This document shows positions 13,816 to 56,614 of a stretch of 64,000 nucleotides of DNA, piece after piece (position 1 is the first letter of the stretch; every line of letters starts with the position of its first letter). The stretch comes from Candidatus Muiribacteriota bacterium (GTDB lineage Bacteria; Muiribacteriota; Muiribacteriia; Muiribacteriales; Muiribacteriaceae). The DNA lies in NCBI GenBank assembly GCA_051747805.1, contig JBNJGP010000002.1, positions 7,608 through 71,607 of the forward strand. The letters run 5' to 3'. The notes beneath the pieces were generated by a model, which was given only the letters and a program-made list of their open reading frames with translations, searched no databases and was not told where the DNA came from. The translations under genes and the position numbers were made by a program.

Positions 13816-13839
13816 AATTGTTTACCGAATTTTCCCTCG

Positions 13840-14658: not shown

Positions 14659-14670
14659 TTAAAAAACCTT

Positions 14671-31390: not shown

Positions 31391-31391
31391 A

Positions 31392-31667: not shown

Positions 31668-31681
31668 AAAACCTCCAACTA

Positions 31682-32644
31682 TTAAAAAAGCATTGAGCCG
31701 CCTATAAAATGTTGATCCACATCGCTGTCATAATCACCCATATATGCATAATCCATTCTGAAATTCGGAGTTACATTCATGGAAAATCCCATATTGAAAT
31801 TTGCATTTTTTGAACCAAAACGGAACGTAAGATTATTTTCAATAAACTTTTTTTCAAGCCCTATCCTGAATTCAGCCTCATCTCCTTCCGCACCCTCAAC
31901 TTCAGAACTTGAAATAATATTATAACCATCAAGAGCTACAAACGTAGTTTCATCAATATGCATTGATACTCCAAGGGAAAAAACTGTAGGCAAGTCATAA
32001 GGAGAATCTTTAAACAAGTTATCTATTGTTAAACCAATATCAAGAAACTCCGAAAATTCGTAAATGGCACCAAAACCCATTGTTGTTTCTGAAAAATCCT
32101 TTAACTTTCCTTCTGAATCAAGATAGTTTGTGTAATTATCAAATCCAAGCTTTACTCCAGTCAGCACAGCAGCACCCGGCTGACCAAATAAATGCATTTT
32201 TCTTGCCACTCCAAGTCTGAATGAATCTTTTTCGAAATTATTACCATCAGCCGAAAAAAGCATTCCTATTCCAAAATTATATGCAACTGTTTTTTCATTA
32301 ACAGGTGGTTGCAATCTCCTTTCAAGGTATTCACTTATTGTAAACCTGACCTCCCGGTCATTATCCAGCGACTGGGAGGTAAAAGCCGCCCCGTCATAGG
32401 CTAAATCATTTCTTAAATTAGCCTTAATCATAAAATTCCCCTCCCTTACGCCGGAGGGAATTTTAGCCAGTCCTGCCGGATTATAAAAAACTCCGGCAGC
32501 ATCATCAGACACTGCAACATAAGCCTCGCCAAGTCCTATTGGTCTAACACCAAAATCACCAAAACCAAGATTACGTACTCCTACAGTTGAATAACTTGTA
32601 ATAATAGAAAATGTTAGTAATAAAATTAAAAATATTTTCTTCAT
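31682..32644 (-). CDS. Outer-membrane beta-barrel protein, FadL/PorV-like
   Basis: Signal peptide, N-terminal GLGEAYVAVSDDAAGVFYNPAGLA (FadL/Toluene_X-type motif), alternating beta-strand pattern, and C-terminal Phe. Confidence 0.45.
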   Translation of the reverse strand: MKKIFLILLLTFSIITSYSTVGVRNLGFGDFGVRPIGLGEAYVAVSDDAAGVFYNPAGLAKIPSGVREGNFMIKANLRNDLAYDGAAFTSQSLDNDREVRFTISEYLERRLQPPVNEKTVAYNFGIGMLFSADGNNFEKDSFRLGVARKMHLFGQPGAAVLTGVKLGFDNYTNYLDSEGKLKDFSETTMGFGAIYEFSEFLDIGLTIDNLFKDSPYDLPTVFSLGVSMHIDETTFVALDGYNIISSSEVEGAEGDEAEFRIGLEKKFIENNLTFRFGSKNANFNMGFSMNVTPNFRMDYAYMGDYDSDVDQHFIGGSMLF

Positions 32645-32662
32645 TTTATTTTTTTCCTCCCT

Positions 32663-33880: not shown

Positions 33881-33889
33881 TTAAACTCC

Positions 33890-36067: not shown

Positions 36068-36152
36068 ATTTATCTCCCGATTATTTTTAATACCTGATTG
36101 TTTGAACTATCGGAAAATAAATAAAATTGAATTAAAACTTGAGGTTTTGAAT

Positions 36153-36815
36153 TTACCGCTGACCATTTACTTCAATAAATGAATTCATTCCTCCGTAACC
36201 GTCATCCTTTAAAATCTCAGCCTCAGTATCTGAATACCAATATTTTTCATCAACAACAAACATGTACATATATCTACCTGAATCAAGGAAAAACTCCCCA
36301 GTCCATACCCCGTCACCATCATAATCACTTAATTCATGCTTACCAGGCTGCCAGTTGTTGAAATCTCCCACAACAGAAACCGATTCAGCCTCATGATTAG
36401 TATAAGAAAAAATTATTATATTTTCATTTGTTTCCTCTTTAATTATGTCATTTTCTGAGCTCTTAATTTCTTCATCTTTTTCAACTTCTACAACTTCAAT
36501 ATAGGAATTTTCAAAGTTCCCGTCTTTTACAATTGATGGATTATCCGGGTCTAAAATCCAATCAGTATTATTTATCACAAATTTATACTGATAATTTCCT
36601 GTTTGCAGGGGGATAAATATCTCCCATCTCCCATCAACTTTTTCCATAATATGTGTAGTATCTGACCAGTCGTTAAAAGTTGCGGTCAGGGAAACACTTT
36701 CATAATTATTATTTTCTATATAAAAAAGCACTCCGTCCTGTTTTATAAGGTAACCAGAATAAATATTTATAAAAAATAATAAAAAAATAATAATAACAGG
36801 AATTTTTTTCTTCAT
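36153..36815 (-). CDS. Secreted protein with two tandem CBM48/AMPK-beta-like glycogen-binding-type domains
   Basis: Signal peptide. Two repeats of the F-NDW...W...L..G.Y.YKFVVD..W pattern (ATFNDWSDTTHIMEKVDGRWEIFIPLQTGNYQYKFVINNTDW and VVGDFNNWQPGKHELSDYDGDGVWTGEFFLDSGRYMYMFVVDEKYW). Confidence 0.5.
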   Translation of the reverse strand: MKKKIPVIIIFLLFFINIYSGYLIKQDGVLFYIENNNYESVSLTATFNDWSDTTHIMEKVDGRWEIFIPLQTGNYQYKFVINNTDWILDPDNPSIVKDGNFENSYIEVVEVEKDEEIKSSENDIIKEETNENIIIFSYTNHEAESVSVVGDFNNWQPGKHELSDYDGDGVWTGEFFLDSGRYMYMFVVDEKYWYSDTEAEILKDDGYGGMNSFIEVNGQR

Positions 36816-36832: not shown

Positions 36833-37984
36833 TTACTTTTTCCAGATGTCATCTAAATAATTTTTAAGCTCATTATATCTGTTTATACTTTTTAAATAAC
36901 TTTTTAAATGATTTTCTGTCATACAGCCAAAAGGTTGTCCAAAACAGTACTTGCATATTTTAATCAAGTTAAAGTTATCAGTTATATGATACATACGGAG
37001 TTTTTTTAATTTCTCTCCCTGCCAAATATCAAAAAAAGGAGTTTCCTTTACATTTCCAAGACTCATATTTGCCCTGAAATCTCTGCAACAGGCAGAAGTT
37101 TCACCATCATATCTTATACCAAAATGCTGCCAAAGTCCTACACAGGGCTGTCTTCTTTTATTTTTATCTTTTTTATCTTCCTCGGAGTATTCCCCTGACA
37201 CAAACGATTTTTTTCCTTTAGTTTCTTTTTTTAATAATCCCTCTTTAATTAAAACATTTTTATGTAATTCATCATAATAAGACTGTTTTTTATTATCTTC
37301 AGCAATCAGTCTTCTTAAAAAAATACTATCCTGCTCGAGTCCGGCAGAATCGTCCCAGATAACAGGCGGGTCTATCCCATATTTTTCAAATTCAGTTTTC
37401 CAGAAATCAATAAAATCTCCCGCCTCCTCAAAATTTTCATCCATTATAATAAACTGTAATATAAGGCTGGGGAATTCTCTCTTTTTACTAAAACGGAGTT
37501 TAATAAAATTTTTAATATTTTGAACTGTTTTATTAAAATCTCCCCCTCTTCTGATTTTTCTATAGGTTTCATAGGAATTAGAGTCAATTGATACAGTGAT
37601 GGGTCCAAATAAATCCGATTCAATTATTGTTTCTGCAACTTCTTCATCAATAAGGGTAAAGTTTGAATGAAGTGACCATACTTCCCAACATTCTGGAAAC
37701 ATTTTCTTTTTTTCTGTCGCGTATTCAACAGCCTTTTTAAATTCAGGGTAAAGTGCGGGTTCTCCATTCCAGAAAGGTATAATTACGCGGGCTTTCTGTG
37801 GCGGTGTGCATAATTCATCAATAATTTTTTTATATAAACCAAAATCCATAACACCCCTGAATTTTTCATTTCTGTTTATTTTCGACTGAGGACACATAAT
37901 ACAGTTAAGATTGCAGTAGGAAATTAAATCCAGGATCAAAACAGGTATTGGTTCATTATGCTTTTTTAAAATAAAATCTGTCAT
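36833..37984 (-). CDS. Radical SAM enzyme with C-terminal SPASM/twitch auxiliary-cluster domain (paralog 1)
   Basis: CNLNCIMC (CX3CX2C) 16 aa from the start. GGE-like FWNGEPALYPEF. KIRRGG. C-terminal PCVGLWQHFGIRYDGETSACC (C-x13-G-x4-C) and CKYCFGQPFGC. Confidence 0.8.
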   Translation of the reverse strand: MTDFILKKHNEPIPVLILDLISYCNLNCIMCPQSKINRNEKFRGVMDFGLYKKIIDELCTPPQKARVIIPFWNGEPALYPEFKKAVEYATEKKKMFPECWEVWSLHSNFTLIDEEVAETIIESDLFGPITVSIDSNSYETYRKIRRGGDFNKTVQNIKNFIKLRFSKKREFPSLILQFIIMDENFEEAGDFIDFWKTEFEKYGIDPPVIWDDSAGLEQDSIFLRRLIAEDNKKQSYYDELHKNVLIKEGLLKKETKGKKSFVSGEYSEEDKKDKNKRRQPCVGLWQHFGIRYDGETSACCRDFRANMSLGNVKETPFFDIWQGEKLKKLRMYHITDNFNLIKICKYCFGQPFGCMTENHLKSYLKSINRYNELKNYLDDIWKK

Positions 37985-38058: not shown

Positions 38059-40215
38059 TTACTGGCAATTCTCAACAATAGTAATCGGTTTTTCCCTGAT
38101 TTCTGCTGAATTTTCAAGCGCTTTATACATAATACTTAGACCGTTGGCAAATCCTGATTTTTCCTTTATTTCAAATTTAAGCTCATTGACTCCCTCATTT
38201 AATTTTAAACTTTCTGTTTTTTTTCTTCCTGAAAAAATCTTATAAACAAATCCGTAACAATCTTTTTTGCCAATCGTAAGTCTGCAGAAAAAAACAGAGT
38301 TAATATATATATATAATTCCGATTTTTTTTCTGTATGCTGTGAACATGCGCTAAAGGACAGTTCAAACTTTTCTGGTATTTTATCAAGCTTAAAGTTATA
38401 AGTTATATAACCATAATCGGCCCCTAAAACATGAGTATAACCTTTAAAAAAATCAGTTTCACCTTTCCAGTAAAAAGCAGGTAATCTATTCCACATAGCC
38501 TCTTCCCACATATCTACAGGTATAAAAATATTTCTTCCTTCTTTTTCAGAAAAAGACAACTTATCTTTATTTGAAAGACGAATTGGTCTTTTTGTCACTT
38601 TTTTACATATTTTCACAAACTCTTTTTCAGAAAAATCTTCAGGAATATAAGTTATATTATCAGAAAAATACTCATCCCAGTCATCTGTTAATATTTTTCC
38701 GCCAAAAAAATCAATTTTTTTTCTGAGAGTTGTTCCAGGATGAGGCTGCATAATCTGAAAATCCCATCCAGCCTCAGGCTTAAGTTCTTCTATTAAGTTA
38801 AGGCTGTCTTGAATTGAGGAGGGAGTTTCGCCTGGACTGCCTATAATCATTAGCATTCCTGCAGGAAGCTTTATTTTTTCATGTAATTTTAAGGCCTTTT
38901 TCACATCTTCAACAGTAAAATTCTTGTTTAATTTTTTCAAAATCTCATCATTTCCAGATTCAACTCCATAAGTAACTTTAACGCAACCAGCTTTTTTCAT
39001 TAAAGTTAAAAGTTTTAAATCAACCATGTTTACCCTGGTATTGCACCTCCATTTAATATTAATATTCTTTTTTATAAGGGTTTTACAGAATTCAACAACC
39101 TTATCTTTAAAAACAGTAAAAGCATCATCATCAATAACAAAATTATAAATATTATATTTTTCAATTATATAAGTTATTTCTTTTATAATTCTTTCGATAG
39201 ACATTATTCTGACCCGTCTTTTCCACATATGGGGAGATTCACAGAATATACAATTTGAAGGACATCCTCTTGAAAACATTACAACTGCCGATACAAGGCT
39301 TCCCGTATCCTCAAAGGTAATATCATCAAAAATATACCCCCGGGTCGGCATAATACTTCTATTTATTAATGGTATTTTATCTGCCTCAAGAAACTCTGCC
39401 TCAGAATTTTTAATAATCTTTTTACCTTTTCTATAAATCAGGGAGGGAATTTTACAAAATTCAACATTATTATTTTCTATACTTTTTAATAATTTCAAAA
39501 AGGGAATCTCGCCCTCACCGCTGATAATAAAATCCATTTTTGAGTTATTCATTATATAATCATAGTTCATTGTGGCAAAAACACCACCCATTACAGTAAG
39601 GCACTCAGGATATAATTCTCTGAAGAGATTGGCAAGATTCATAGCTCCCTTTGCCTGATAAGTCATTCCCGTAATTCCTAATATATTAAATTTATTTTTT
39701 CTGGCATACTCAACAACTTCGTAATTATCAAATCCTGAGTAATTCATGTTGATAATTTCAACATCGTAATAATCCTCAATAATAGAGGCAATACAGCCAA
39801 GACCAAGAGTTACGGTTGTTTTAAAAGGGGCTTTCTCAGATACTCTTGGATTAACAAGCAGCACTCTGGGTCTGGAGATTGATTTCACTATATATTCTAA
39901 AACTCTGTGCTTGGCCTCTTTTTCTAAATAGTTGACAGTTTCAGAGGGACTTAAATAAAAATCAGGTCTACATTTAACACATTTTTTTGGCAGATCTTTT
40001 TTCAAAATATGATTCAACCTGAATTTTTTCATAGAATCACTTTCCCATAATTTGAAAATATTATTATCTATATCTCCAATTTTTAAATCAAGTGTTAAAT
40101 CATAATTACATACAGTTACTGAACCGTCAGCTCTTAAAACAGGGGATTTAAAAACTGCACCGCAGGGAAGTTTATGTTTTAGATAATATGTCAATTTTTC
40201 CTCCTCCTTGGGCAA
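38059..40215 (-). CDS. Cobalamin-binding (class B) radical SAM enzyme preceded by a detached SPASM-like segment. The start is a TTG, and it may be the 3' part of a frameshifted gene
   Basis: aa 15-90 (LPCGAVFKSPVLRADGSVTVCNYD...CVKCRPDF) aligns with the C-terminal SPASM segment of the neighbouring paralogs. A B12-binding Rossmann-like region follows (ILGITGMTYQAK...VMGGVFAT). The radical SAM core is SRGCPSNCIFCESP, and about 200 aa of unknown C-terminal domain follow. Confidence 0.75.
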   Translation of the reverse strand: MPKEEEKLTYYLKHKLPCGAVFKSPVLRADGSVTVCNYDLTLDLKIGDIDNNIFKLWESDSMKKFRLNHILKKDLPKKCVKCRPDFYLSPSETVNYLEKEAKHRVLEYIVKSISRPRVLLVNPRVSEKAPFKTTVTLGLGCIASIIEDYYDVEIINMNYSGFDNYEVVEYARKNKFNILGITGMTYQAKGAMNLANLFRELYPECLTVMGGVFATMNYDYIMNNSKMDFIISGEGEIPFLKLLKSIENNNVEFCKIPSLIYRKGKKIIKNSEAEFLEADKIPLINRSIMPTRGYIFDDITFEDTGSLVSAVVMFSRGCPSNCIFCESPHMWKRRVRIMSIERIIKEITYIIEKYNIYNFVIDDDAFTVFKDKVVEFCKTLIKKNINIKWRCNTRVNMVDLKLLTLMKKAGCVKVTYGVESGNDEILKKLNKNFTVEDVKKALKLHEKIKLPAGMLMIIGSPGETPSSIQDSLNLIEELKPEAGWDFQIMQPHPGTTLRKKIDFFGGKILTDDWDEYFSDNITYIPEDFSEKEFVKICKKVTKRPIRLSNKDKLSFSEKEGRNIFIPVDMWEEAMWNRLPAFYWKGETDFFKGYTHVLGADYGYITYNFKLDKIPEKFELSFSACSQHTEKKSELYIYINSVFFCRLTIGKKDCYGFVYKIFSGRKKTESLKLNEGVNELKFEIKEKSGFANGLSIMYKALENSAEIREKPITIVENCQ

Positions 40216-40948
40216 TATTTTTCAAAAACTCGGTATTCTTTAGAATTCCTGCCTGTTTTAATGCTTTTTCATAAAGATTATTAGCCTCTGCCTGATTTAT
40301 TTGCAGTTTATCACTTTGAACAGTTAAGGGTCTTATATTTACGCCATTTTCGAGTGCCATACTGCAGTTTAAACTAATTTCAAAATCAAGTTTATTTTCT
40401 GTAAACACTTTTTTCCAGAAAGAAATAAAATAACTAAGTTCATTATAATTTTCATTTTGAACAATAAACTGAATCATAGTTTTTATATTATTGTTTTCTC
40501 TAACCTTTTTTAAGAAATTTTTAATATTCTCTATAACTTTTTCAAAATTTCCACCCACTCTTATTTTATTATAAGCTCCCTCACAAAAGGCATCAACAGA
40601 AAATATCACGCTGAGTTTTTTATCCCTGGCCGCGTCCATTATTGCCTCGACTTTTTTAGAGTTCAACAGTTCCCCGTTAGTATCAAAACAAATGTGATTG
40701 ATTTTTTTGCTTTCAGATAATTTATACATTATTTTTTCAAAATCAGGATGCATGAGAGATTCTCCCGCCCAGAAAGTTCTCAGTACGTTTATTTTATAAC
40801 TTGAGCTTTCTAATTGAAAAAGAAATTTTTCAACTGTATCAAGTTCCATAAAAAGTGGCGGAAGCACATCTCTATTTTTAAGAAAACACATTCTGCAACG
40901 ATAATTACATTTATTTGTAAGTTCTAAAGTTAAATCAATAGTGTTCAA
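40172..40948 (-). CDS. Radical SAM core domain protein lacking the SPASM tail (paralog 2, probably the 5' part of a split gene)
   Basis: CNYRCRMC, FWAGESLMHPDF, DTNGELL and KIRVGGNFEKVIENIKNF are all collinear with the other paralogs. The ORF ends before the Cys-rich C-terminal domain. Its 3' end overlaps the next ORF (40172-40215) in the +1 frame. Confidence 0.7.
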   Translation of the reverse strand: MNTIDLTLELTNKCNYRCRMCFLKNRDVLPPLFMELDTVEKFLFQLESSSYKINVLRTFWAGESLMHPDFEKIMYKLSESKKINHICFDTNGELLNSKKVEAIMDAARDKKLSVIFSVDAFCEGAYNKIRVGGNFEKVIENIKNFLKKVRENNNIKTMIQFIVQNENYNELSYFISFWKKVFTENKLDFEISLNCSMALENGVNIRPLTVQSDKLQINQAEANNLYEKALKQAGILKNTEFLKNIAQGGGKIDILSKT

Positions 40949-42126
40949 CTTTCTAATTCCCTTTTGTAAATGTTTAATTCTTCTTCTGATATATAGGGAG
41001 TATCAAGGCCTGAACAGTTTAAACATTTTTTATCCCCGTTATGAGTCAAAACTTTGTCAAAATCTCCATTTAAATGATTTTTTCTCATCTCGGTTAATTT
41101 ATCGCCAAACCATAGATCTGAGAAAGTATAATCTTTCAGGTTTCCCAAAGCAAGTTCCATTGAAGGGTCAAAACAACATACAGTAAGCGAACCGTCCCAC
41201 TTTATAGAGGGAGTTTTCCATAAGCCCGAGCAAGGTCTTCTTATTGTTTTGTCTTTTTCCTCATTTTTTTGTTTATCCTGCTCTGGATTCCAGAGATTAA
41301 AACTTGAAACAATAATTTCTGCCTCTTCAAGAACCTCTGATTTAAGGTTGAACTTTTCCATAGTATCCATATATATTTTCTGGGCCTCAAAAATTCTGTC
41401 AGTATCAAGTCTTTTAAACCATATAACATCATCAGGCGGAGTTATATTTATTTTTTTGCCTATTTTACGACCCAGTGAATATCCGGACAGGCCGGTGATT
41501 TTATTTAAATATTTTGCTTTAGAACCTGTACTGTATTTCTGTAATTTTTTAAGCCAGGATTTTTTAAACTCCAGGGCCTCATCTTTGTTTTCTTCCATAA
41601 CAATAAACTGAAAAATTAAACCAGGTTTTTTCTTTTTAAGCGCGGCCCTTTTTTTTAAAAAATTTTCTATATTTTCAACCGCCCTGTTTAAGTCTCCGCC
41701 CCTTCTTATTTTTTTATAAGTGTCTGGTTTCACAGCATCCAGACTTAAAGTTATTCTGGGTATCCGCTGAGAATACTCTAAAAGAAGCTCAATAATCTCA
41801 TCAGAAAGAAAATAAGCATTTGTATGAAGGTCTATGTAATAATTGCCCTTATTCTCTGAATTTAAAATATTATTACACTCTTTAAGCATATCAGCAAAAA
41901 CAGGATTTAAAAAAGGTTCTCCCAGCCAGAAAAGTTTCAGACCACAGGCAGCATTCATTTCAGGAAGTTCTTTTATGATTTTTTTAAAGAGTTTTTTATC
42001 CATAAATCCCTGTTTAGAAGAGTGTGGTCCCTCAGGCCTGTCATGACAGCACATTATACAGTTATAATTACAAAAATCGGTTAGTTCTACAAGAATATAT
42101 TGATCCAGAAAGTTTTGCATCCACAT
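40945..42126 (-). CDS. Radical SAM / SPASM-twitch enzyme (paralog 3)
   Basis: CNYNCIMCC, FWLGEPFLNPVF, KIRRGGDLNRAVENIENF, C-terminal PCSGLWKTPSIKWDGSLTVCC and CLNC. Confidence 0.8.
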   Translation of the reverse strand: MWMQNFLDQYILVELTDFCNYNCIMCCHDRPEGPHSSKQGFMDKKLFKKIIKELPEMNAACGLKLFWLGEPFLNPVFADMLKECNNILNSENKGNYYIDLHTNAYFLSDEIIELLLEYSQRIPRITLSLDAVKPDTYKKIRRGGDLNRAVENIENFLKKRAALKKKKPGLIFQFIVMEENKDEALEFKKSWLKKLQKYSTGSKAKYLNKITGLSGYSLGRKIGKKINITPPDDVIWFKRLDTDRIFEAQKIYMDTMEKFNLKSEVLEEAEIIVSSFNLWNPEQDKQKNEEKDKTIRRPCSGLWKTPSIKWDGSLTVCCFDPSMELALGNLKDYTFSDLWFGDKLTEMRKNHLNGDFDKVLTHNGDKKCLNCSGLDTPYISEEELNIYKRELES

Positions 42127-43236
42127 TTAAAAATCCTCTAAATATTTTAAATACTCATCAAACCCGTATTTTTTCAAATATTTTTCCAGTTCTTTTTTAT
42201 TTATCTCAGGAGAATCAAGGTTATTACATTTTATACATTTGGGCATTGTCTCAAGCTCGCCTTTAATATGCGCAAGTCTGTAATTATGACATTTTTTTGA
42301 ATGCCATAAATCCTCAAGTGAAACGTTTTTAATATTCCCGAGAGACAGCTCCCTCAAAGTATCTATACAACAGACTGTCACCTCTCCCTCCCAGTTAACC
42401 ATAACATATTTAAACGGCCCGGAACACGGATAACGCCTTTTTTCTCCTCTGTATTCACGGCTTTCAACAGCTCTTTCTTCTCTGTTTGATTTATTTTTTA
42501 TTAATCCCAGTTCTACCATTTTATCAAAATGAAGCTTTTCAGATTTCGCCAGATTTTCATGTTTAATTGGATTCAGTCTTTTAAAAAAAATTGTATCTTT
42601 AATCATAGGAGGGTGCCAGTCATAATTTGTCTGAAAATCTATACGATTTTTTTTTAAAAAATTTTTCCAGTAATTATAAAAACTTAAAACTTCATGTTTA
42701 TTTTCTTCCATAATTATAAATTGAAGAGTTATACGTGGAACCCCTGTTTTTTTCCGTCTTTTAAATAATTTTTCTATATTATTTACTACTTTATCAAATG
42801 AACGATTTTTTCTTATATTATAATAAGTTTCAGAAGAGGCAGCATCCAGGGAGAAACTTAAGGTAAACGGAACACTTGCCTTATTTGAAATTAATTCTAT
42901 CACTTCTTCATTAATACCTGTACCATTAGTATGCAAGTCTATTGTTTTAAAGTATCTTCCAGTTTCATTTATTCTGAATATTTCCGCAAGAAAATCATTA
43001 AATTCAGGATGAAGCGTGGACTCTCCAAGACCAAACGGGATTAATTTATCAAAATACATATCTTTTTGAACAATTTCATCTATAAGCTTAGAAAAAATTT
43101 TTTTATCCATAAAACCTTTCTTGGCAACATTTTGTGATTGTGTACACATAATGCAGGAACAGTTACAGAAATTTGTAACCTCAAGCCCTAAAACAGTATT
43201 ATCAAAAAAATTTTTTAACATTTTAACTTCTTCCAA
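42127..43236 (-). CDS. Radical SAM / SPASM-twitch enzyme (paralog 4)
   Basis: CNCSCIMC, FGLGESTLHPEF, C-terminal PCSGPFKYVMVNWEGEVTVCC and CIKC. Confidence 0.8.
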   Translation of the reverse strand: MEEVKMLKNFFDNTVLGLEVTNFCNCSCIMCTQSQNVAKKGFMDKKIFSKLIDEIVQKDMYFDKLIPFGLGESTLHPEFNDFLAEIFRINETGRYFKTIDLHTNGTGINEEVIELISNKASVPFTLSFSLDAASSETYYNIRKNRSFDKVVNNIEKLFKRRKKTGVPRITLQFIIMEENKHEVLSFYNYWKNFLKKNRIDFQTNYDWHPPMIKDTIFFKRLNPIKHENLAKSEKLHFDKMVELGLIKNKSNREERAVESREYRGEKRRYPCSGPFKYVMVNWEGEVTVCCIDTLRELSLGNIKNVSLEDLWHSKKCHNYRLAHIKGELETMPKCIKCNNLDSPEINKKELEKYLKKYGFDEYLKYLEDF

Positions 43237-46200
43237 ACCTATTTTTATATATTTTTATTAATTTTTCCTCTCCAACACTGTAAAGCCAGCTTTCAACCTC
43301 TTCATCCTTAAGAGGATATTTGACCCAGTTTAAACAATCCCTGCATTTTGGAAGCTTATCAAATTCTCCAAGCACATGGGCTAGCCTGAGCTCTTTTAAA
43401 GCGTCTCCATACCATACACTTTCAAGCCCCTCTTCAATAACATTTCCAATAGGCATTTTCACCTGATCATCACGACAGCATGCTGTAGCCCAACCATCCC
43501 ATGTAATAGAACACATCTGCCAGAGTGAACGACAGGGTCTTCTTTTAACTCCTTTTTTTACAGAAGAAATTATTTCTCTGTGTTTCTGAGCTTTTGTAAG
43601 AGCATTAGGTTCCAACGACTTAATAAAAACAACGTCTTTATCTATCTGAGGAAAAAGAAGGTTAGGCTTTGTGGGAAGATTATACTTATTATCTTCTTTT
43701 CTTCCAGCATAAATAACCTCATCTATACCAATTTTCCTTCCAAGTTCAACAAAAGACATAATTTCATCTACATTTTCATCCATAACTATAAACTGTAAAA
43801 TTACAGCAGGTCTCAAAACATTAGCCTCTTTCCTTTTTAACATTAATCTTTTAATATTCTCAATTACAACATTAAGCTCGCCGTTAACTCTTATTTTTTG
43901 GTATGTTTCTTCAGTTGCCGCATCTATAGAAAATAAGATTGAATCAAGCTCAGAATTAATAAGGGTTTCTATATGTTCATCAGTTAACACATTTCCATTT
44001 GTATGAATATTATAATGCTGTATATTTCCTGGAATTCTTCTAATCTGAGATAAAAGCTCTATAAATTCATTTATCTGAGGATGAATAAACGATTCTCCAA
44101 GCCAGTATGGAACAACTTCCCAGATATTGAGCTTTTTACTTTTTATTTCATCAGTAATTTTTTTAAAATCCTTAAGTTTCATGACTCCGAGGCTGCGCTC
44201 GAAAGAATTATCTCCGTGATTACACATAATACATGATAAATTACATAAATTTGTCGGCTCTATAAAAAGTGCGGCACCGGATAATCCCCATTTTTTAGAT
44301 TTTCTGGTTTCTTCAATCCGTATATCTTTAAGAGAAAAACTATTTTTTCCTTTTTTAATATTTTTTTCCATCAGATAAGAAATATCTTTATAATCATAAA
44401 GCGTACCAGAAATATTTATTTTAGGCGAAGAGGTTGAAATTTTATTTTCAAGATTCTCTATGAATGTATTTTCTTTCTTTATGTTTGAAATTTTACTTAA
44501 CTTTTGTGATTTACCTCTCATTAAACTCACCGGACTCCAAGTTGCAAAGTAAACTCTACCCTGAACAGGAACTTTCTGCCATTCAAGGCCAATATAAAAT
44601 TCATAATTTATCACTTTTTGAAGTGAAGCTTTTCCTTCAAGTTTATTCAAAGGAATGTTTACCTTGGTAAAAACACTGCTTTCAGTTAATGATGTCCATT
44701 CATAAGAAGAAATATTATTGTCAGTATCTCTGATAGAAAAACGAACTTTAAATCCAGGTTTATCAGATAAAAAATTAAAAGTAATAAATTTTTTACCTTT
44801 AAAAGAAACAGGCTGACCAAAATCATTTCTTTTTAAAATAATCCAGTTCTCAAGACTGTTTTCAGTATTTATACCAAAATCAACTTTCAGGCAGGGATAA
44901 TTCAGCATAGGGTGTTTCCAGGCACCATTAATATTAATAAATGAATCTTTACCACTTGATACCCAGTAATTTTTCAACTCAGAATCTCCGAAAAAATTGA
45001 AATCCTCAAGATTATAATATAAATCAGAGCTTATTTTATTTCCAGCAATACGTGGTAATGTAAAATTAATAATTCCTTTTTTGCTTTTTTCTGAGCTTAT
45101 ATTGTTGAAATGAAATTCAACATATTTAATATGCGCGAAATTAAAAGAAAGATTTTTTTCAACGTTAAAATCCGATTTTTTAAATATTATATTTGAAAGA
45201 TTCCCGCCCCGAATAATATCTGCTTTAGAGCTTATTTCATTATTTTCTATGTCAGTTAAAACAAATTTAACCGTAGCATTAAGGCTCGAGTTTATAATAG
45301 AACTAATCTGATTGAATCCAGAAAAATCCGTTGTTTCTGAAAAAAGCATATTAAATCTTATAATCAAAAAATTTTCACCATTATCAACAATTCTGAAACT
45401 AACTTCATTTTGTGATAATTTTTTACTGTTTGAAATAATGTTGTTGCTCTCAACCAGAGAAATAAAATTTTCATTAATCTTATAATCCGGGGTATCGTAC
45501 AAAACTTCATTTTTCTGTTTTGTATTCTGAACAACTTTTTCAATATCTGCAGCATAAAAAACAATTTTATACAATTTTATATTTTCGTATTCTTCCCCAT
45601 TTATATACAAGTTTAATGATTTTAAAAATTTTGCGTCCCCGGAAGCATCCTGCCATACAGGAAAGAAAAAATCTTTTATCTTAAAATAATAAAAACACGA
45701 ATTTACTGGAACTCCCCTTACAGGATTTGACCACTTTTCCAACCCGTTATCTGTTTCAAGAATCAACCTTAAATCGTTTCGGGGATATTTAGTTAAATAT
45801 AAACCTATTCCTTCTATTTCTTCGAGTATGAGATTAACTAATTCTGAATGGGTAATTTTTACTATAGAATAGGCAGATTTATCAACTTCTGAACCCGAAT
45901 AGTCTATCTCAAGAGAGTTACTTTCAAGATTTAAGTTAATTTCTGAGTCTTTTGACTCAGTCCTCAAATTCAGCTTTCTGAGCTCTGACGCCTCAATAGA
46001 AGAGACTTCATAACCTGCCGGTATTTCTTCAGTCTGCTGCGATTGAATAAAAAAGCCGTTAATAACCGCATTTATTTTTGAAGCAGCTTTTATTAAAAAG
46101 TTGACACCAGTTAATTTAAACTTTTTAAAAGAAACAGGTTTTTTCAAAACAAACTCACTACTGTTTCTAATTTCAGGCAAAAAAGTGTTTTTTCCACCTT

Positions 46201-46954
46201 CAAATTCAAGTTCCACTAGTATGCGCGCTTTTTCCAGGAAATCTATTTTTAAGAGAATTCCACAAAAATCTTTCGAGGCTCTATTTTTAAAAAAAGAAAA
46301 ATCTATTTTATTCCAGCCTGAGTTTTGATTAAAGTCTCCTTTAATTATTAGTTTATTATTTTCTAAATAGCAACTATCTTTATTTAAATAACTTCTTTTT
46401 GTTTCTACTTTCCCATTAAAATATTCAAAAAAAGGAGTTTTATACATCTCAACTCCAAACATTGGAGGAACCTCAATATAATATAAATCCAAAAACTCTA
46501 ATTCTATCTTTTTAGTTTTATTATTTAAATAAAATCCAACAGATAAAATATCCCCGAATAATTTAATATTTTTATCGCTCCATTTAGGCGCTGAAAAATC
46601 ACTAAACAAAAAGTGTATTTTATTTTTACCTTTCTTTAATTTAGTGAATTTTGTAAAAAATTCATTTTGAGCGGAATCTTTTAGAACTAAGGCAAAATAA
46701 CATTTATCACTGGCTTTAATTTCAAGTTCAAACCCCCTTAAACTTGCACTGTCTATAAAAACAGGCTGAAAATATTCACACCAGATGACTTCTTCTGTTT
46801 TTTTTAAAGTCTGTTTAGAATCGTCCAGATAAGTCTCAAAAAAATCAACAGGCCCCTTTTCTGTGATATAAACACCATTATAGGCATTGATGAAAATTTT
46901 TCTTTTTTTTATATTCTCATGGGCAAATAAAATATTTTCCATCTTTTTTACCAA
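43223..46954 (-). CDS. 1243-aa fusion: about 880-aa N-terminal domain of unknown function plus a C-terminal radical SAM / SPASM-twitch module (paralog 5)
   Basis: The last 360 aa or so carry CNLSCIMCNH, YWLGESFIHPQI, HTNGNVL, KIRVNGELNVVIENIKRL, PCRSLWQMCSITWDGWATACC and CRDC. The N-terminal region has no signal peptide or TM and looks beta-rich by composition. Confidence 0.75.
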   Translation of the reverse strand: MVKKMENILFAHENIKKRKIFINAYNGVYITEKGPVDFFETYLDDSKQTLKKTEEVIWCEYFQPVFIDSASLRGFELEIKASDKCYFALVLKDSAQNEFFTKFTKLKKGKNKIHFLFSDFSAPKWSDKNIKLFGDILSVGFYLNNKTKKIELEFLDLYYIEVPPMFGVEMYKTPFFEYFNGKVETKRSYLNKDSCYLENNKLIIKGDFNQNSGWNKIDFSFFKNRASKDFCGILLKIDFLEKARILVELEFEGGKNTFLPEIRNSSEFVLKKPVSFKKFKLTGVNFLIKAASKINAVINGFFIQSQQTEEIPAGYEVSSIEASELRKLNLRTESKDSEINLNLESNSLEIDYSGSEVDKSAYSIVKITHSELVNLILEEIEGIGLYLTKYPRNDLRLILETDNGLEKWSNPVRGVPVNSCFYYFKIKDFFFPVWQDASGDAKFLKSLNLYINGEEYENIKLYKIVFYAADIEKVVQNTKQKNEVLYDTPDYKINENFISLVESNNIISNSKKLSQNEVSFRIVDNGENFLIIRFNMLFSETTDFSGFNQISSIINSSLNATVKFVLTDIENNEISSKADIIRGGNLSNIIFKKSDFNVEKNLSFNFAHIKYVEFHFNNISSEKSKKGIINFTLPRIAGNKISSDLYYNLEDFNFFGDSELKNYWVSSGKDSFININGAWKHPMLNYPCLKVDFGINTENSLENWIILKRNDFGQPVSFKGKKFITFNFLSDKPGFKVRFSIRDTDNNISSYEWTSLTESSVFTKVNIPLNKLEGKASLQKVINYEFYIGLEWQKVPVQGRVYFATWSPVSLMRGKSQKLSKISNIKKENTFIENLENKISTSSPKINISGTLYDYKDISYLMEKNIKKGKNSFSLKDIRIEETRKSKKWGLSGAALFIEPTNLCNLSCIMCNHGDNSFERSLGVMKLKDFKKITDEIKSKKLNIWEVVPYWLGESFIHPQINEFIELLSQIRRIPGNIQHYNIHTNGNVLTDEHIETLINSELDSILFSIDAATEETYQKIRVNGELNVVIENIKRLMLKRKEANVLRPAVILQFIVMDENVDEIMSFVELGRKIGIDEVIYAGRKEDNKYNLPTKPNLLFPQIDKDVVFIKSLEPNALTKAQKHREIISSVKKGVKRRPCRSLWQMCSITWDGWATACCRDDQVKMPIGNVIEEGLESVWYGDALKELRLAHVLGEFDKLPKCRDCLNWVKYPLKDEEVESWLYSVGEEKLIKIYKNRFGRS

Positions 46955-49034
46955 AGCAAAGCTTATCCTTTTTCTTTTTTACAATAAATAAATTATCTTT
47001 ATTAATACTTTCTATACTAACATAATCATTTTCTGTTTTGAACTCTGAAATAAATAAATGAAAGTTTATATTATTCTGTTTTGAAATTTTATCAAAAAAT
47101 TTTATTTTTTCCTCATCTAAAATATTTATCTTAACAGGAATTACCGTGTTAAAGAATTTTAAAAATTTTTTTTCCTTAAAACTAATTTCATCTAATATTT
47201 CTGTTTGAAATAATTCTGAATAAAAGAACTCAAAATCTTCATTGCACTCAATTAAGGTGGTTTTAGAAGATAAAATTTTCAAAAGTTTTATTTTTATTAA
47301 AATTTTATTAATCCAGCTTAATATATTTTTTAAACTTTTTTCTAAAAAACTTAGTTTTATAAAAACAAGCAGACTTATAAAAACTAAAATTAATAAAAGT
47401 GATAATAGATTTTTTTTATTTTCTTCGCCGTTTCCCCTGTAATTAAATTCAAATTCTATATTTTTATTTAAATCAATATTTTCCTGCATTATTTTTTTAT
47501 AAATTTTTTTTTGGGAGTTTAATCCCCATATCTGAAAAAAACCTTCTTTAGCAGTTGCTGTATCTTCATAAAAATATTTACCCTCGTCAAAAATAAGTTT
47601 GTTTTTTTGAAAGCTTTCAAAATTTTTCTCCTCTTTATTAAAATTATGTACTATAAAAAACTCTTCAAAAAATTCAACAGGCAAATTATTAAAAGCAAGA
47701 TTATAATTAACCATATTTTTTCTTTTTTTATCGAAATTAAGCTTAAGTTGAATTTGCTGTGCTTCAAATACCGGTATCTCAAAAAATTTACTTTCCTTAC
47801 CATCTTCTGATATGAATTTTACTCTTATAAAATCTGGTGTTTTTTCTTTATCAGATAAGGGAACAAAAAAACTTAAAAAAAACTTATCCTGTTTTTTTTT
47901 CATCTGAAAAAATTCCGGAATATAATGAAACTCTCCATTTATAAAATAATTTTTTTTTAAAAAAACCTGGTTTTTATCCCAGGTAACTTCAGCAAAAACC
48001 TCTGCATGTCCTTCTTTAATTAAAGTATTATCCTCATGAAGTTCTAAAAGAACCTGCTTATGGATTAATTCATTATTTTGAAAAAAAGATATTTCTGGTT
48101 TTTCCATAGTAAAAATCGGAGCTTTTATTGAATCACTTTTTAATTTAATTTTTGAAAACATATTTTTAAATTTCCAGTATATCCCTTTTTTATAAGTGTT
48201 TTCCGGAACAAATGTTATTTTTTCAGTCCTCAATTTTTTAAGCGGATAATCATTTTCTGTTATTTCAAAATTATAAATTTCTTCCTCATTATCTGAGAAA
48301 ATTCTACAGACATAAAATCCTGTTTTTTTAATATTAAAACTATAAGACTTCGGACCGGTAACTTTTCTTCCGTAAAGAACATTTGAACTTTCTAAGTTAT
48401 AAATTAAAAGGGTGGTCTCTTTTTCGGAGGGAATAAATATATTTACCTCTCCTTTAAATGGAGATATTCTAGAGAAATTTTTAAAATCAAGATTTAATTG
48501 AGAGTTATGTTTTTTTAAAGAATTTACATTAATATATCCTTTATAATATCTTTTATTATCCGTAATTTTTATTTTTTTGGTTTTAAAAGGATTTATAGTC
48601 AGGGATTTTAATAAACTGTTTTTTTCGACCTTTTCTGAGCCAAGCAACTTGGAATTATCATCTATTATATTTAATTTATCTACATAATCATATATGTTTT
48701 CAATTTTTATATTTAAATTAATAAAACTGACATTCAAGTTTAACTTCACTGTTTTATCTTTATAAGTTTGAAAGTTAAATACATGCCAAATTCTGTCGTT
48801 TTTGAACAACTTTATTTCATAATCATAATCAGTTGCAAGATAAATTTTTTTTTCAAACTGATTATTTTCAAACTCCAGAGGAAATACCCTTTTAGCTCCC
48901 CAGTCTGTTCTAAGTTCATAATTATTTTCATCTTCTGCAATCTTTTCCAGAGAAACAAAAAAAACTCCACTTTCCTGAGAAAAAGAGCTCAAAACACATA
49001 AAATAAAAAAGATAGAAAAAAAAAATTTTTTCAT
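46917..49034 (-). CDS. 705-aa bitopic membrane protein: signal peptide, about 520-aa extracytoplasmic domain, one TM helix, about 140-aa cytoplasmic tail
   Basis: N-terminus MKKFFFSIFFILCVLSSFSQE. The single hydrophobic helix is LLSLLLILVFISLLVFI at about aa 545-565. The tail is Lys-rich and ends CFGKKDGKYFICP. It is translationally coupled to rSAM genes on both sides. Confidence 0.5.
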   Translation of the reverse strand: MKKFFFSIFFILCVLSSFSQESGVFFVSLEKIAEDENNYELRTDWGAKRVFPLEFENNQFEKKIYLATDYDYEIKLFKNDRIWHVFNFQTYKDKTVKLNLNVSFINLNIKIENIYDYVDKLNIIDDNSKLLGSEKVEKNSLLKSLTINPFKTKKIKITDNKRYYKGYINVNSLKKHNSQLNLDFKNFSRISPFKGEVNIFIPSEKETTLLIYNLESSNVLYGRKVTGPKSYSFNIKKTGFYVCRIFSDNEEEIYNFEITENDYPLKKLRTEKITFVPENTYKKGIYWKFKNMFSKIKLKSDSIKAPIFTMEKPEISFFQNNELIHKQVLLELHEDNTLIKEGHAEVFAEVTWDKNQVFLKKNYFINGEFHYIPEFFQMKKKQDKFFLSFFVPLSDKEKTPDFIRVKFISEDGKESKFFEIPVFEAQQIQLKLNFDKKRKNMVNYNLAFNNLPVEFFEEFFIVHNFNKEEKNFESFQKNKLIFDEGKYFYEDTATAKEGFFQIWGLNSQKKIYKKIMQENIDLNKNIEFEFNYRGNGEENKKNLLSLLLILVFISLLVFIKLSFLEKSLKNILSWINKILIKIKLLKILSSKTTLIECNEDFEFFYSELFQTEILDEISFKEKKFLKFFNTVIPVKINILDEEKIKFFDKISKQNNINFHLFISEFKTENDYVSIESINKDNLFIVKKKKDKLCFGKKDGKYFICP

Positions 49035-50050
49035 ATTAATTTTTTTAAAAAATCAAGCTCCTCCTGACAGAACTTCGGGTAAACCTGTCCCATACATTTC
49101 CTGCAGGCTTTAAGGGTGCTTTTTTGCCTATTAATATGCTTTTTTTTATAATTTAAAAACTCTCTGCCGTTTATTATATCAGAAATTTTCATATTATGGA
49201 TATTCCCAACTTTTGCCTCACCACCCGTATCAACACAACAGGGAAAAACATCCCCATTTACACCCACAGTTATATGAGTAAACGGTCCAGAACAAATAAC
49301 AGGCTCAGAAAGAAATGAATAATCTGGATTATTAAAAAATTTTTTTACTGTTTTTTTAAAAATTTCATCATACCTGCTCTGCTTTTTTTTATTATACGGG
49401 AAAAGACATCTTCTAATAAAAATACTATCTCCGGCTTGAGCTTCAGAAGGTTTGTTATAATCATACTTCAGATTTAATTTCATACCTTTTTTGTTAAATA
49501 CCTGCTTCCAGTATGAAATAAACTGAGGAAGCTCTTCATAGTTTTCTTCCATTACAATATACTGTAAAACTATATGAGGTAAAGAGTTCATCTTATGCTT
49601 TCTTTTTTCCAAAAGTAATTTTACTGATTTTTCCAGTTTGCTTTTTTTACCACCACATCTTATTTTTTCATAACTTTCTTTTAAAAAAGCGTCGCATGAA
49701 ATTGTTATTACTGAAAAAATACCTGTTCCTGAAATAAAAGAACAGGTACTATTATCTAGAAGCATTCCGTTAGTATCAACTGCGACTCCATTTGCAATTA
49801 AGTTATTTTTATTTTCAAAAGAAAAAAACTCCATAATTTTTTTAAACTCAGGATGAAGCAAACTTTCACCCCGCCAGAAAGGTAGCATTACATTAAAGCT
49901 TAATTCTGCCTCTTTAACCTGAGAAATAATTTTTTTAAAAGTTTTAAATTTCATAAACTCGGGTTTTCTTCTTATCACAGGACACATTTTACAGTTGAGA
50001 TTACAGAAATTCGTAAGTTCAATTATTAATGTTGAATATTTATCAATCAT
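49031..50050 (-). CDS. Radical SAM / SPASM-twitch enzyme (paralog 6)
   Basis: CNLNCKMC, FWRGESLLHPEF, DTNGMLL, KIRCGG, C-terminal ICSGPFTHITVGVNGDVFPCC and CRKCMGQVYPKFC. Confidence 0.8.
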   Translation of the reverse strand: MIDKYSTLIIELTNFCNLNCKMCPVIRRKPEFMKFKTFKKIISQVKEAELSFNVMLPFWRGESLLHPEFKKIMEFFSFENKNNLIANGVAVDTNGMLLDNSTCSFISGTGIFSVITISCDAFLKESYEKIRCGGKKSKLEKSVKLLLEKRKHKMNSLPHIVLQYIVMEENYEELPQFISYWKQVFNKKGMKLNLKYDYNKPSEAQAGDSIFIRRCLFPYNKKKQSRYDEIFKKTVKKFFNNPDYSFLSEPVICSGPFTHITVGVNGDVFPCCVDTGGEAKVGNIHNMKISDIINGREFLNYKKKHINRQKSTLKACRKCMGQVYPKFCQEELDFLKKLI

Positions 50051-50063: not shown

Positions 50064-51104
50064 TTATTTTATTTTTGAATATATTATGCAGGCTTCTTTA
50101 TCAGTCAACTGTGAAATATTATCTTTCACCATATTTTCAACAGTATCGTATTCACTAGTAATTTTAAAATCCTCGAGCAAGGCATAAGGTTTATTAAAAT
50201 AATAATCCCATATATAATTTAACATATCTTTGGCCTCTATACTCCCTTTAGATTTATCTGCCTGTTTATAAACTTCCTCAAACATGAATTTTCTCAACTT
50301 ATTTACGGAGTCAAGAACTTCTGATTTAAGGCTAATTGTTTTATTTTTTAAAGAATTTTCAATTAATGATTTAACCATTGTATCAACTCTTTTTCCGTGG
50401 GTTTTTCCAAGAATCTCCATACAATCTGATGGAAAATCCTCAAATTTTATATAATTCATATTAAGCGAATCTTCAATATCATGGTTTAAATAGGCAATTC
50501 CATCAGAATATCTCACAATATAGGCCTCATTAGTCACAGGAGGGCCACAGTCAAGAGCAAATGAATCAATCTCAGCAGAATCTTTGGAATGTTTTAAAAT
50601 ACCGTCTCTCACCTCGGCAGTAAGATTTAACCCTTTATCTTTTTTTGCAAGCTTATCTACAATTCTGAGAGAGTTTCTTGAATGATGAAACCCATTTTCT
50701 GAACGTTGATTCAACACTTTTTCACCTAAATGTCCAAACGGAGTATGTCCAATATCATGTCCTAGAGCAATTGCTTCTACAAGGTCCTCATTCATTTTCA
50801 GTGCCCTGGCTATTGTACGTGCGATCTGTGCCACTTCAAGAGTATGAGTAAGCCTTGTTCGCGGATGAATAAAATCCCCTATAATAAAAACTTGTGTTTT
50901 ATCTTTCAACCTTCTGAAAGGAGCGCAGTGAATTATTCTATCCCTGTCCCTCTGATAACAAGTTCTAAGTTCACTTTCTTTTTCGGTGACAACTCTTCCC
51001 CTGCTTTGAGAAGAAGTTTGTGCGAGTTCTTTATCTAGAAAAATATTCTCAAATTCTTCAATTTTCTTCCTTATTATCATCGTTAACATCCTCTTGGCCG
51101 CCAT
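50064..51104 (-). CDS. dGTP triphosphohydrolase-like HD-domain protein
   Basis: HSLEVAQIARTIA...GHDIGHTPFGH HD motif of the dGTPase family. Confidence 0.75.
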   Translation of the reverse strand: MAAKRMLTMIIRKKIEEFENIFLDKELAQTSSQSRGRVVTEKESELRTCYQRDRDRIIHCAPFRRLKDKTQVFIIGDFIHPRTRLTHTLEVAQIARTIARALKMNEDLVEAIALGHDIGHTPFGHLGEKVLNQRSENGFHHSRNSLRIVDKLAKKDKGLNLTAEVRDGILKHSKDSAEIDSFALDCGPPVTNEAYIVRYSDGIAYLNHDIEDSLNMNYIKFEDFPSDCMEILGKTHGKRVDTMVKSLIENSLKNKTISLKSEVLDSVNKLRKFMFEEVYKQADKSKGSIEAKDMLNYIWDYYFNKPYALLEDFKITSEYDTVENMVKDNISQLTDKEACIIYSKIK

Positions 51105-51450
51105 CTCCCTTAATTATTTTTTTTATTACCTTATTTAACTTCTCATAATTTTCAGCATCAAGCAGTTTATCCATCCATTTTTCTTTTTTAGAAAGAGGAA
51201 GTACTTTAACATCATTTTCGCTAATTGAAATAAAAGCAACAGGTTCTATTGAGGCCCCGCCGCCTGTACCGGCACCAAATCCAGGAAGCTTTTTCTTTTC
51301 TCCGCCGCCTGCTCCAAAACCAAACGTAACTTTGCTGACCGGGATAAGAGTTACTTTTCCAGCCTTAATTGGTTCACCTATTACTGTCTGACACTGAATT
51401 GAATTTTTAAGCTCATCTATTAGAGTTTTTACTACATTATCAAAAGCCAT
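51058..51450 (-). CDS. GerW/YtfJ-family protein
   Basis: VIGEPIKAGKVTLIPVSKVTFGFGAGGGE...GAGTGGGASIEPVAFISI matches the GerW/YtfJ glycine-rich core. Confidence 0.5.
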   Translation of the reverse strand: MAFDNVVKTLIDELKNSIQCQTVIGEPIKAGKVTLIPVSKVTFGFGAGGGEKKKLPGFGAGTGGGASIEPVAFISISENDVKVLPLSKKEKWMDKLLDAENYEKLNKVIKKIIKGDGGQEDVNDDNKEEN

Positions 51451-51451
51451 C

Positions 51452-54253: not shown

Positions 54254-54659
54254 TCCCCAGTATTGATTCTATTTTTTTTAATAATTCATCAGGAGAAAAG
54301 GGTTTAACAAAGAAACCCTCAACCCCAACATGTTTTGCAAAAAAACTGTTTTTTTTATCACTTAAAGCTGTTATAACAATAACAGGAAGATTCTTTAATT
54401 TTTTATGGTTTTTTATCAGTCTTAATAGCTGCCAGCCGTTAAGCTGAGGCATCATTATATCAATTATTAGAAGATCATATATGTTTTTTTCAAGCTCATT
54501 CATAAGATTAACTGAATCATTTAAAGCTTTTACTTCATAGTTCTCAAGAGAAAGTAAAATATGAATAAAATCTGTAACATCTTTCTCATCATCAAGAATC
54601 AGTATTTTTTTCTTCCCGGTATTGTTTTCCATCATAATAACAAACTCTATTTCTCCCAT
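54243..54659 (-). CDS. Single-domain response regulator (REC/CheY-like). The start is uncertain; candidates are at 54659, 54635 and 54707
   Basis: KKILILDDEKDV...LLIIDIMMPQLNGWQLL...LPVIVITAL places the phospho-acceptor Asp and Lys in the expected positions. The ORF-track start at 54707 overlaps the upstream GGDEF gene. Confidence 0.7.
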   Translation of the reverse strand: MGEIEFVIMMENNTGKKKILILDDEKDVTDFIHILLSLENYEVKALNDSVNLMNELEKNIYDLLIIDIMMPQLNGWQLLRLIKNHKKLKNLPVIVITALSDKKNSFFAKHVGVEGFFVKPFSPDELLKKIESILGNDK

Positions 54660-56607: not shown

Positions 56608-56614
56608 TAGGCTC

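Follow-up and report, generated by a model that had tools for sequence, protein, structure and literature searches.

The window analysed here, 64,000 nt of Candidatus Muiribacteriota contig JBNJGP010000002.1 (positions 7,608 to 71,607; assembly GCA_051747805.1), encodes a fusion protein of 1,239 amino acids (aa) in which a radical S-adenosylmethionine (SAM) enzyme is carried on a long N-terminal arm. The arm is a tandem array of jelly-roll (beta-sandwich) modules of the type of CIA30 and of carbohydrate-binding module (CBM) family 11, and contains no enzyme domain. Its sequence places the protein in the radical SAM superfamily, with a predicted auxiliary domain of the Twitch type that would bind one cluster, and its gene belongs to an operon of seven radical SAM genes. 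The protein thus combines a catalytic type already known with an architecture and an operon that are new, conserved and very rare. For enzymology it offers a target that is both real and unusual, and the function set out below is a proposal. Our tentative model, to which we give somewhat less than an even chance, is that of a cytoplasmic BtrN-like radical SAM enzyme whose arm holds a large non-peptide substrate, probably a glycan.

Architecture of the fusion protein

The open reading frame (ORF) extends from 43223 to 46954 on the minus strand, 1,243 codons from a TTG start, as a preliminary description of the window had stated. An ATG at 46942, four codons inside this frame, is the likelier start. 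The resulting coding sequence (CDS; 43223..46942, minus strand) shares 26 nt with its upstream gene, and its 1,239-aa product is identical to NCBI protein P0001 from a Candidatus Muiribacteriota metagenome-assembled genome (MAG); residues are numbered on this product throughout. The window has ~30% GC and all of its long ORFs lie on the minus strand; chance cannot explain a frame that stays open over 3.7 kb at this GC content. Because the window derives from a MAG, we considered that a misassembly or frameshift might have attached something unrelated to a radical SAM gene. Fusion orthologs nevertheless occur on contigs independent of this one, assembled from different samples and belonging to two candidate phyla, with identical architecture and an always conserved linker, and this conservation excludes an artefact for all practical purposes. 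The sole apparent stand-alone copy of the catalytic domain, P0006, was rejected as such, being a contig-edge fragment with its frame open to the edge.

The first ~890 aa have no match in Pfam or NCBIfam. The preliminary description had taken this region for a single large uncharacterised domain, rich in Asn, Lys, Phe and Ser, with a beta-strand-like periodicity and with neither signal peptide nor transmembrane (TM) helix. Most of these properties held up. The N-terminus is charged and has no signal peptide, the N-terminal ~880 aa have no TM helix (maximum 19-residue Kyte-Doolittle mean 1.17), and the protein is cytoplasmic. The arm consists of 11.0% K, 9.4% S, 9.3% N, 9.3% I and 8.4% F, compared with 3.3% F, 6.4% N and 5.8% S in the C-terminal part. 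It is not a single domain, however: it comprises four homologous, recognisable units of ~150 aa plus one further stretch of ~160 aa. Self-BLAST found no repeats within the N-terminal region, phmmer found no paralog of it among all ORFs of the window, and word-indexed protein searches, one with the region and one with alignment A4, returned the query alone, probably because low-complexity words swamped the candidates. A contig look-up by the exact sequence of P0001 gave no result either. The repeats became visible only through ortholog-based profiles. Seeded with the last module of the window protein and later with its first, jackhmmer found every repeat in the eight family members, and the resulting family profile (33 module instances) matches four regions of the window protein, each at an hhalign probability of at least 99%.

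Module 1 (aa 15-165; 46448..46900, minus strand) was found with the last-module profile at a jackhmmer E value of 9e-15 (hhalign 99.9%), closes on the motif SDFSAPKW and resembles module 2 at an hhalign probability of 95%. Module 2 (aa 326-465; 45548..45967, minus strand; jackhmmer E 5e-22, hhalign 99.3%) closes on KDFFFPVW and falls in an all-beta block at aa 310-465 of a whole-arm AlphaFold2 (AF2) model, as module 3 (aa 488-635; 45038..45481, minus strand; jackhmmer E 4.5e-25, hhalign 99.6%) does in a block at aa 494-633. Module 4 (aa 638-805; 44528..45031, minus strand) is the best conserved, with the motifs NWIILK and FYIGLEWQKVPVQG. A short aromatic motif, for example [DE]F..P.W, recurs at the ends of many modules. 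Between modules 1 and 2 lies the ~160-aa region (aa 166-325; 45968..46447, minus strand), which is restricted to Muiribacteriota members and alignable among four Muiribacteriota orthologs. It appears beta-rich by eye, has no similarity to the module profiles (hhalign probability 0.1-0.4%) and has an AF2 predicted local distance difference test (pLDDT) score below 30; it may be a degenerate module. The linker to the catalytic domain (aa 806-884; 44291..44527, minus strand) is alignable in all orthologs and has no Pfam match; a long helix is followed by a small alpha/beta element, and the segment ends in a conserved KKWGL.

The fold of the modules was assigned from structural models, as the preliminary description had proposed, and a CBM11/CIA30-type beta-sandwich was recovered. 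Module 4 was modelled with AF2 (aa 630-870) on an alignment of 16 module sequences, giving a beta-sandwich with core pLDDT >90. In a Foldseek search of the PDB with this model, the first-ranked match is 7zkq_A (E 1e-6), chain A of a complex I assembly intermediate, which we take to be the CIA30 factor. The second is CBM11 (1v0a; E 3e-6, TM-score 0.45-0.61 (TMt 0.61), 174 aligned columns), on whose beta-jelly-roll fold the model superposes, and many other CBMs are among the further matches. Pfam agrees for the orthologs: CIA30 (PF08547) is matched by P0003 at 49.2 bits (cut-off 24) and by 5 of 16 isolated modules at E <=0.1, the window protein itself having no CIA30 match, and CBM_11 (PF03425) is matched by P0003 and P0004 at 34.5-37.3 bits (cut-off 27). 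The whole-arm model, made from five sequences, is nearly all-beta, like that of module 4, in keeping with the periodicity noted earlier; its blocks coincide with the modules, and a long helix (aa 808-835) follows the last. Its Foldseek matches, to Cry protoxins and SGBP-B, indicate merely many beta-sandwiches. The preliminary description had also considered that the N-terminal region might be a known enzyme domain, such as a glycosyltransferase or methyltransferase; the arm is made of beta-sandwich modules rather than of any known catalytic domain, and the protein is accordingly not a bifunctional enzyme of that kind.

The catalytic domain begins with a radical SAM core (aa 894-1062; 43757..44263, minus strand), which matches Pfam PF04055 at 57.6 bits (cut-off 29.5). 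Its CxxxCxxC motif, CNLSCIMC (C900/C904/C907), is invariant in 10 aligned sequences. The auxiliary Fe-S domain (aa 1137-1203; 43334..43534, minus strand) matches Pfam PF13186 (SPASM) at 44.9 bits (cut-off 21.5) and conserves five Cys, C1137, C1155, C1156, C1200 and C1203, as well as G1150. The SPASM motif has seven Cys (CX9-15GX4C ... CX2CX5CX3C ... C), which support two auxiliary [4Fe-4S] clusters. Its CX5CX3C element and terminal Cys are absent from the fusion protein and all its paralogs. The spacing C-x17-C ... C-x2-C aligns instead with C169, C187, C232 and C235 of BtrN in a comparison by hmmsearch of profile A2, made from the fusion catalytic domain plus its paralogs, with 4m7s. These four residues are the ligands of the single auxiliary cluster of BtrN. 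The auxiliary domain is therefore best classed, from its Cys pattern, as a Twitch domain with one predicted auxiliary cluster, not a full two-cluster SPASM domain, and the incomplete seven-Cys motif sets the fusion protein apart from the canonical SPASM maturases.

Over its last ~355 aa the protein shows 26-33% identity to five radical SAM paralogs encoded nearby in the window (BLASTP, E 1e-26 to 1e-56). The preliminary description had called the C-terminal ~360 aa a complete radical SAM/SPASM paralog of these enzymes; the paralogy is borne out, with the Pfam cut-offs passed, whereas the SPASM part is incomplete and has the Twitch pattern. The best NCBIfam match, TIGR04317, aligns over nearly the full length at 118.6 bits against a cut-off of 380, and matches to TIGR04321 (spiro-SPASM) reach 56.7-92.8 bits against 250, leaving the protein outside every curated NCBIfam family. 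No PqqD or RiPP (ribosomally synthesized and post-translationally modified peptide) recognition element (RRE) domain was matched by Pfam in the full-length protein or in the linker alone, a search that a divergent RRE could escape.

A rare family in a conserved operon

The architecture is very rare. Searching 1.84 billion cluster representatives with phmmer returned four relatives, P0002-P0005 (E 2e-65 to 1e-6), all of which end in a radical SAM/SPASM domain, and searches covering billions of proteins brought the family to eight members, the window protein and seven others. Besides P0001 (1,239 aa), these are proteins of 1,232 aa from another Candidatus Muiribacteriota locus (L010), of 1,444 aa (L008) and 1,396 aa (P0002; L001, which is the same as L009) from Candidatus Muiribacterium halophilum, and of 1,404 aa from Candidatus Wallbacteria (P0004; L004), together with P0003 (L006), cut by the contig end at a length of at least 1,229 aa, from MAG GCA_028687545.1, P0005 (L007; 869 aa) from a metagenome contig and the partial P0012 (L013) from an unclassified bacterium. 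Among 241 million JGI metagenome records there was no additional fusion protein; the same scan yielded 351 single-domain relatives at ~27-33% identity. Complete members have 2-6 modules plus the catalytic domain, with four modules in the window protein and L010, five in L001 and L008 and two in P0005. Orthologs share 54-69% identity in the catalytic domain and 16-33% in the arm, where the number of modules varies; such a contrast between a conserved catalytic domain and a divergent arm is typical of binding-module arrays. In P0003 (L006:1-3692), a 42-residue segment, FRRAPWSSTAGGKLCEIVSLRFSFAADSGAKLPLRNTVLIAP, occurs twice in identical form, at aa 1-42 and at about aa 394-436; either a unit of two modules was duplicated in tandem very recently, or the repeats misled the assembly at the end of the contig.

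The operon encodes seven radical SAM enzymes: the fusion protein, five paralogs of its catalytic domain (r1, r3, r4, r5 and r7) and one B12-dependent radical SAM protein. Their order is r1, fusion, r3, r4, r5, the Twitch plus B12-radical SAM protein and r7, with a membrane protein between r1 and the fusion gene in Muiribacteriota only. This order is kept, and each paralog has a one-to-one ortholog, in Muiribacteriota, Wallbacteria and a taxonomically unplaced contig. The triad of fusion, r3 and r4 is found in every locus that extends far enough, and L007 has just the triad. Conservation across Muiribacteriota and Wallbacteria with a fixed set of partners implies an old, selected pathway. The genes overlap or are separated by at most 74 nt in the window, where no ATG-started ORF of 25-100 aa occurs in the operon outside the annotated genes; it is therefore improbable that the operon has a precursor peptide of its own. 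No non-radical-SAM gene is common to all loci, which points to a general cellular substrate. A defence system was considered and rejected: PADLOC picked up only a generic likeness of the radical SAM core to pVip plus a neighbouring dGTPase of housekeeping type.

Four of the partners are radical SAM/Twitch enzymes. The first gene of the conserved set, r1 (49031..50050, minus strand), has orthologs in L001 and L004 at 36-37% identity. The fusion gene is always followed by r3 (42127..43236, minus strand), with orthologs at 44-59% identity in L001, L004, L006 and L007 and the same ORF order around it in L008 and L010, and r3 is always followed by r4 (40945..42126, minus strand), whose one-to-one orthologs are 44-61% identical. 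The last gene is r7 (36833..37984, minus strand). The remaining paralog, r5 (40172..40948, minus strand; 258 aa), with orthologs in L001 and L006, is a radical SAM core without an auxiliary domain. It stops where a Twitch/SPASM domain should start, and that domain opens the next, overlapping gene (38059..40215, minus strand), whose product joins Twitch/SPASM, B12-binding and class-B radical SAM domains (alignment A6). The two genes are split between different reading frames in all five loci that reach this point (the window, L001, L006, L008 and L010), so the boundary is not a sequencing frameshift, a candidate explanation that was rejected. The arrangement suggests that r5 and the B12 protein form an obligate complex. 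In L006 the B12 protein is fused to r7. The C-terminal ~175 aa of the B12 protein (38062-38598, minus strand) are 50-58% identical among Muiribacteriota, look beta-rich by eye and have no match in Pfam, the PDB or the module profile; a further beta-sandwich module was considered here and rejected (hhalign probability 0.2%).

The Muiribacteriota membrane protein (46917..49034, minus strand; 705 aa) carries a signal peptide and, around aa 543-565, one strong TM helix. Its gene overlaps both neighbouring genes, and the protein evolves fast, being 24% identical to a 732-aa protein in L001. It has no Pfam match, and the loci outside Muiribacteriota that were examined, L004 and L007, lack it. In L007 the triad is followed (L007:11087-12858) by a Carbam_trans_C gene and then by a 286-aa protein without a family match. 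The carbamoyltransferase-family protein carries just the C-terminal domain of the NodU/CmcH type. The Carbam_trans_C family O-carbamoylates sugars; this neighbour speaks for a link with carbohydrates and may be a clue to the chemistry.

Possible roles of the modular arm

In the model that we tentatively favour, the catalytic domain would contain one SAM-binding [4Fe-4S] cluster plus one Twitch-type auxiliary cluster and would be borne on a non-catalytic arm of four or five CBM11/CIA30-type modules. The fusion protein is the central and best-conserved member of the seven-enzyme operon. The operon enzymes would most likely act sequentially on one large, non-peptide substrate. The modules would hold this substrate, which is probably a glycan or glycoconjugate whose synthesis takes place in the cytoplasm or on the inner side of the membrane. 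The catalytic domain would then remove a hydrogen atom from a carbon of the sugar, which would be oxidised, epimerised or altered in a similar way. We infer both the reaction type and the role of the modules as binding units with a carbohydrate ligand. BtrN, the best PDB sequence relative of the catalytic domain, acts on a carbohydrate-derived aminocyclitol. The relatives of the catalytic domain point in the same direction. Glycos_transf_2, with 19 proteins, is the most frequent of the families among their 128 nearest neighbours in 35 other loci, where LPG_synthase_TM, Wzi, DegT, NTP_transferase and Epimerase occur as well. When L052 is added to these 35 loci, a local profile finds glycosyltransferase family 2 (GT2) within three genes in 14 of the 36, and GT2 accounts for 7% of all genes there.

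One locus, L053 (~8500-17200; L052 and L053 are from metagenomes Ga0210122 and Ga0210064, respectively), adds to this link with carbohydrates, being a multi-radical-SAM polysaccharide cluster. It has five tandem relatives by Pfam and eight by the family hidden Markov model, and these are interleaved with genes for a glycosyltransferase of family 4, a Wzx-type flippase, a GT2 enzyme and a GFO/IDH/MocA oxidoreductase.

Several observations weigh against a glycan-holding arm. The best PDB sequence match of the module profile is indeed 1v0a, with a marginal E value of 0.039. Neither the window protein nor its last module reaches any Pfam threshold, that of CBM_11 included, and because their own sequence stays below the cut-offs the window modules are not filed as CBM11 proper. 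Confidence in the whole-arm model is low, with pLDDT averaging 49.9. The conserved core of the operon contains no glycosyltransferase or sugar-nucleotide gene, and the GT2 association comes from relatives that are 27-33% identical, in ~40% of their loci. The CBM11/CIA30 fold also serves protein-protein contacts, CIA30 being an assembly factor. A bolder version of the same model, which we regard as doubtful, is a cytoplasmic 'radical tailoring line' in which the seven radical SAM enzymes would carry out successive C-H functionalisations on a polysaccharide or glycoconjugate held by the modules; it would make these the first CBMs recruited to radical SAM chemistry and imply a new glycan modification in uncultured candidate phyla.

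The preliminary description had offered a built-in substrate, a scaffold and a carbohydrate- or protein-binding targeting domain as roles for the N-terminal region. The fold favours a carbohydrate- or protein-binding domain. A rather unlikely alternative is a scaffold, in which the paralogous radical SAM enzymes would dock on the modules to form one multi-enzyme complex; the arm would bind proteins, in the manner of CIA30 during complex I assembly, instead of the substrate. This alternative would suit the top structural match to a complex I assembly intermediate and the CIA30 matches of orthologs. The gene fusions and splits in the operon, namely the transfer of the r5 auxiliary domain to the following protein in five loci and the joined B12 protein and r7 in L006, are clear signs that the operon enzymes associate physically. 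P0005, with two modules, has only two partner radical SAM genes, and versions with four to six modules have five or six. A rule of one module per partner fails, however, because the six partner genes are alike throughout Muiribacteriota, yet module number there is four (window, L010) or five (L001, L008), and modules that diverge faster than the partners (16-33% against 44-61% identity) are unexpected for specific docking surfaces. Docking apart, the seven enzymes might tailor a membrane lipid or secondary metabolite, with the arm localising or stabilising the enzyme, for example at the membrane via the 705-aa protein encoded within the Muiribacteriota operon. The NCBIfam matches of the B12 protein, all far below cut-offs, include HpnJ, a lipid 'ladder' B12-radical SAM family and AprD4; the paralogs weakly match the tetraether synthase Tes, and GDGT-MAS is among the PDB matches; a CMAS-like methyltransferase follows the operon in L006, and LPG_synthase_TM proteins adjoin relatives. 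We nevertheless judge this pathway improbable, as none of these similarities comes near its family cut-off, the membrane protein and the CMAS gene are each confined to one lineage, and a need for tandem CBM-type modules is left unexplained.

A built-in substrate found no positive support and is very improbable. The attached or neighbouring radical SAM enzymes would here modify the modules themselves, for example by cross-links or methylations at [DE]F..P.W, which accords with an operon without a separate precursor gene, with the recurrence of the aromatic motif at module ends and with a weak NCBIfam likeness to peptide-modifying maturases. Radical SAM/SPASM maturases, however, act on extended peptides, and the prediction for each module is a compact, folded beta-sandwich. 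They evolve fast, the residue after the motif Trp varies (D, R, K, S or E) and the arm has no conserved Cys. The maturase matches are far below cut-offs (best 118.6 bits against 380), and aa 1-890 and the linker have no Pfam match and hence no domain of the RRE/PqqD type. With neither a precursor gene nor an RRE match, the fusion protein does not qualify as a RiPP-type radical SAM/SPASM maturase.

Known relatives and genomic surroundings

Twitch/SPASM radical SAM enzymes are known as single-domain proteins or with peptide-recognition domains, and a full-text literature search found no paper that joins radical SAM/SPASM with carbohydrate-binding modules or describes the operon. BtrN, the butirosin 2-deoxy-scyllo-inosamine dehydrogenase (4m7s/4m7t), shares the CxxxCxxC core (profile E 2.5e-19) and a one-to-one alignment of C1137, C1155, C1200 and C1203 with its four auxiliary Cys. 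It is, however, a 250-aa single-domain enzyme of an aminoglycoside cluster, whereas the window protein carries an arm of 880 aa, has one more Cys (C1156) beside C1155, shows low overall identity to BtrN and shares its operon with six further radical SAM enzymes. The SPASM maturases are similar in that the Pfam SPASM cut-off is passed, the core aligns with CteB (5wgg; E 5.6e-15) and the full-length protein with anSME (4k36; E 4e-9); the window protein differs in lacking CX5CX3C and the last Cys, so that it has Cys for one auxiliary cluster only, and no RRE domain or precursor peptide gene was found for it. TIGR04317 (a maturase of a tungsten cofactor oxidoreductase) and TIGR04321 provide the best NCBIfam matches of the catalytic domain and its paralogs, but at scores so far below the cut-offs that neither the fusion protein nor the paralogs are members, and to our knowledge neither family carries CBM-like modules.

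On the side of the arm, the CBM11 of Clostridium thermocellum Lic26A-Cel5E (1v0a) has the same fold, and P0003 and P0004 pass the Pfam CBM_11 threshold. CBM11 is, however, secreted, sits on glycoside hydrolases and binds beta-1,3-1,4-glucans, whereas the arm modules are cytoplasmic, occur in tandem (2-6 copies) on a radical SAM enzyme and, in the window protein, stay below Pfam thresholds. CIA30/NDUFAF1 (PF08547) gives the strongest Pfam match among the orthologs and, on our reading of 7zkq_A, the top structural match; it is a single-domain mitochondrial assembly chaperone, whereas the fusion locus has no complex I context. If the modules do bind glycans, the CBM concept would extend from hydrolases to radical chemistry, pointing to polysaccharide modifications not yet described; if they dock partner enzymes, they would represent a new way to build a multi-radical-SAM complex. 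Either model offers a concrete gene set for heterologous expression from lineages without cultured members.

The operon is flanked by gene sets of other kinds. A run of cell-surface genes (30308-36815, minus strand) begins 17 nt downstream of the last radical SAM gene and encodes a secreted protein with two modules of the CBM48/AMPK glycogen-binding type, an SLH-domain protein of 725 aa, a Glucodextran_C (SLH-like) protein, a 320-aa protein and a secretin; it is not kept beside the operon in L001 or L008. Upstream of the operon (50064-57808, minus strand) lies a cyclic-di-GMP signalling block with a dGTPase-like HD protein, a YtfJ-like protein, a GAF-HD-GYP-type protein, a GAF-GGDEF cyclase and a SpoIIE-type phosphatase; it is syntenic with L001 and absent from the Wallbacteria loci. 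Elsewhere in the window (14671-22623, minus strand), a giant protein of 2,650 aa consists almost entirely of HEAT and TPR repeats.

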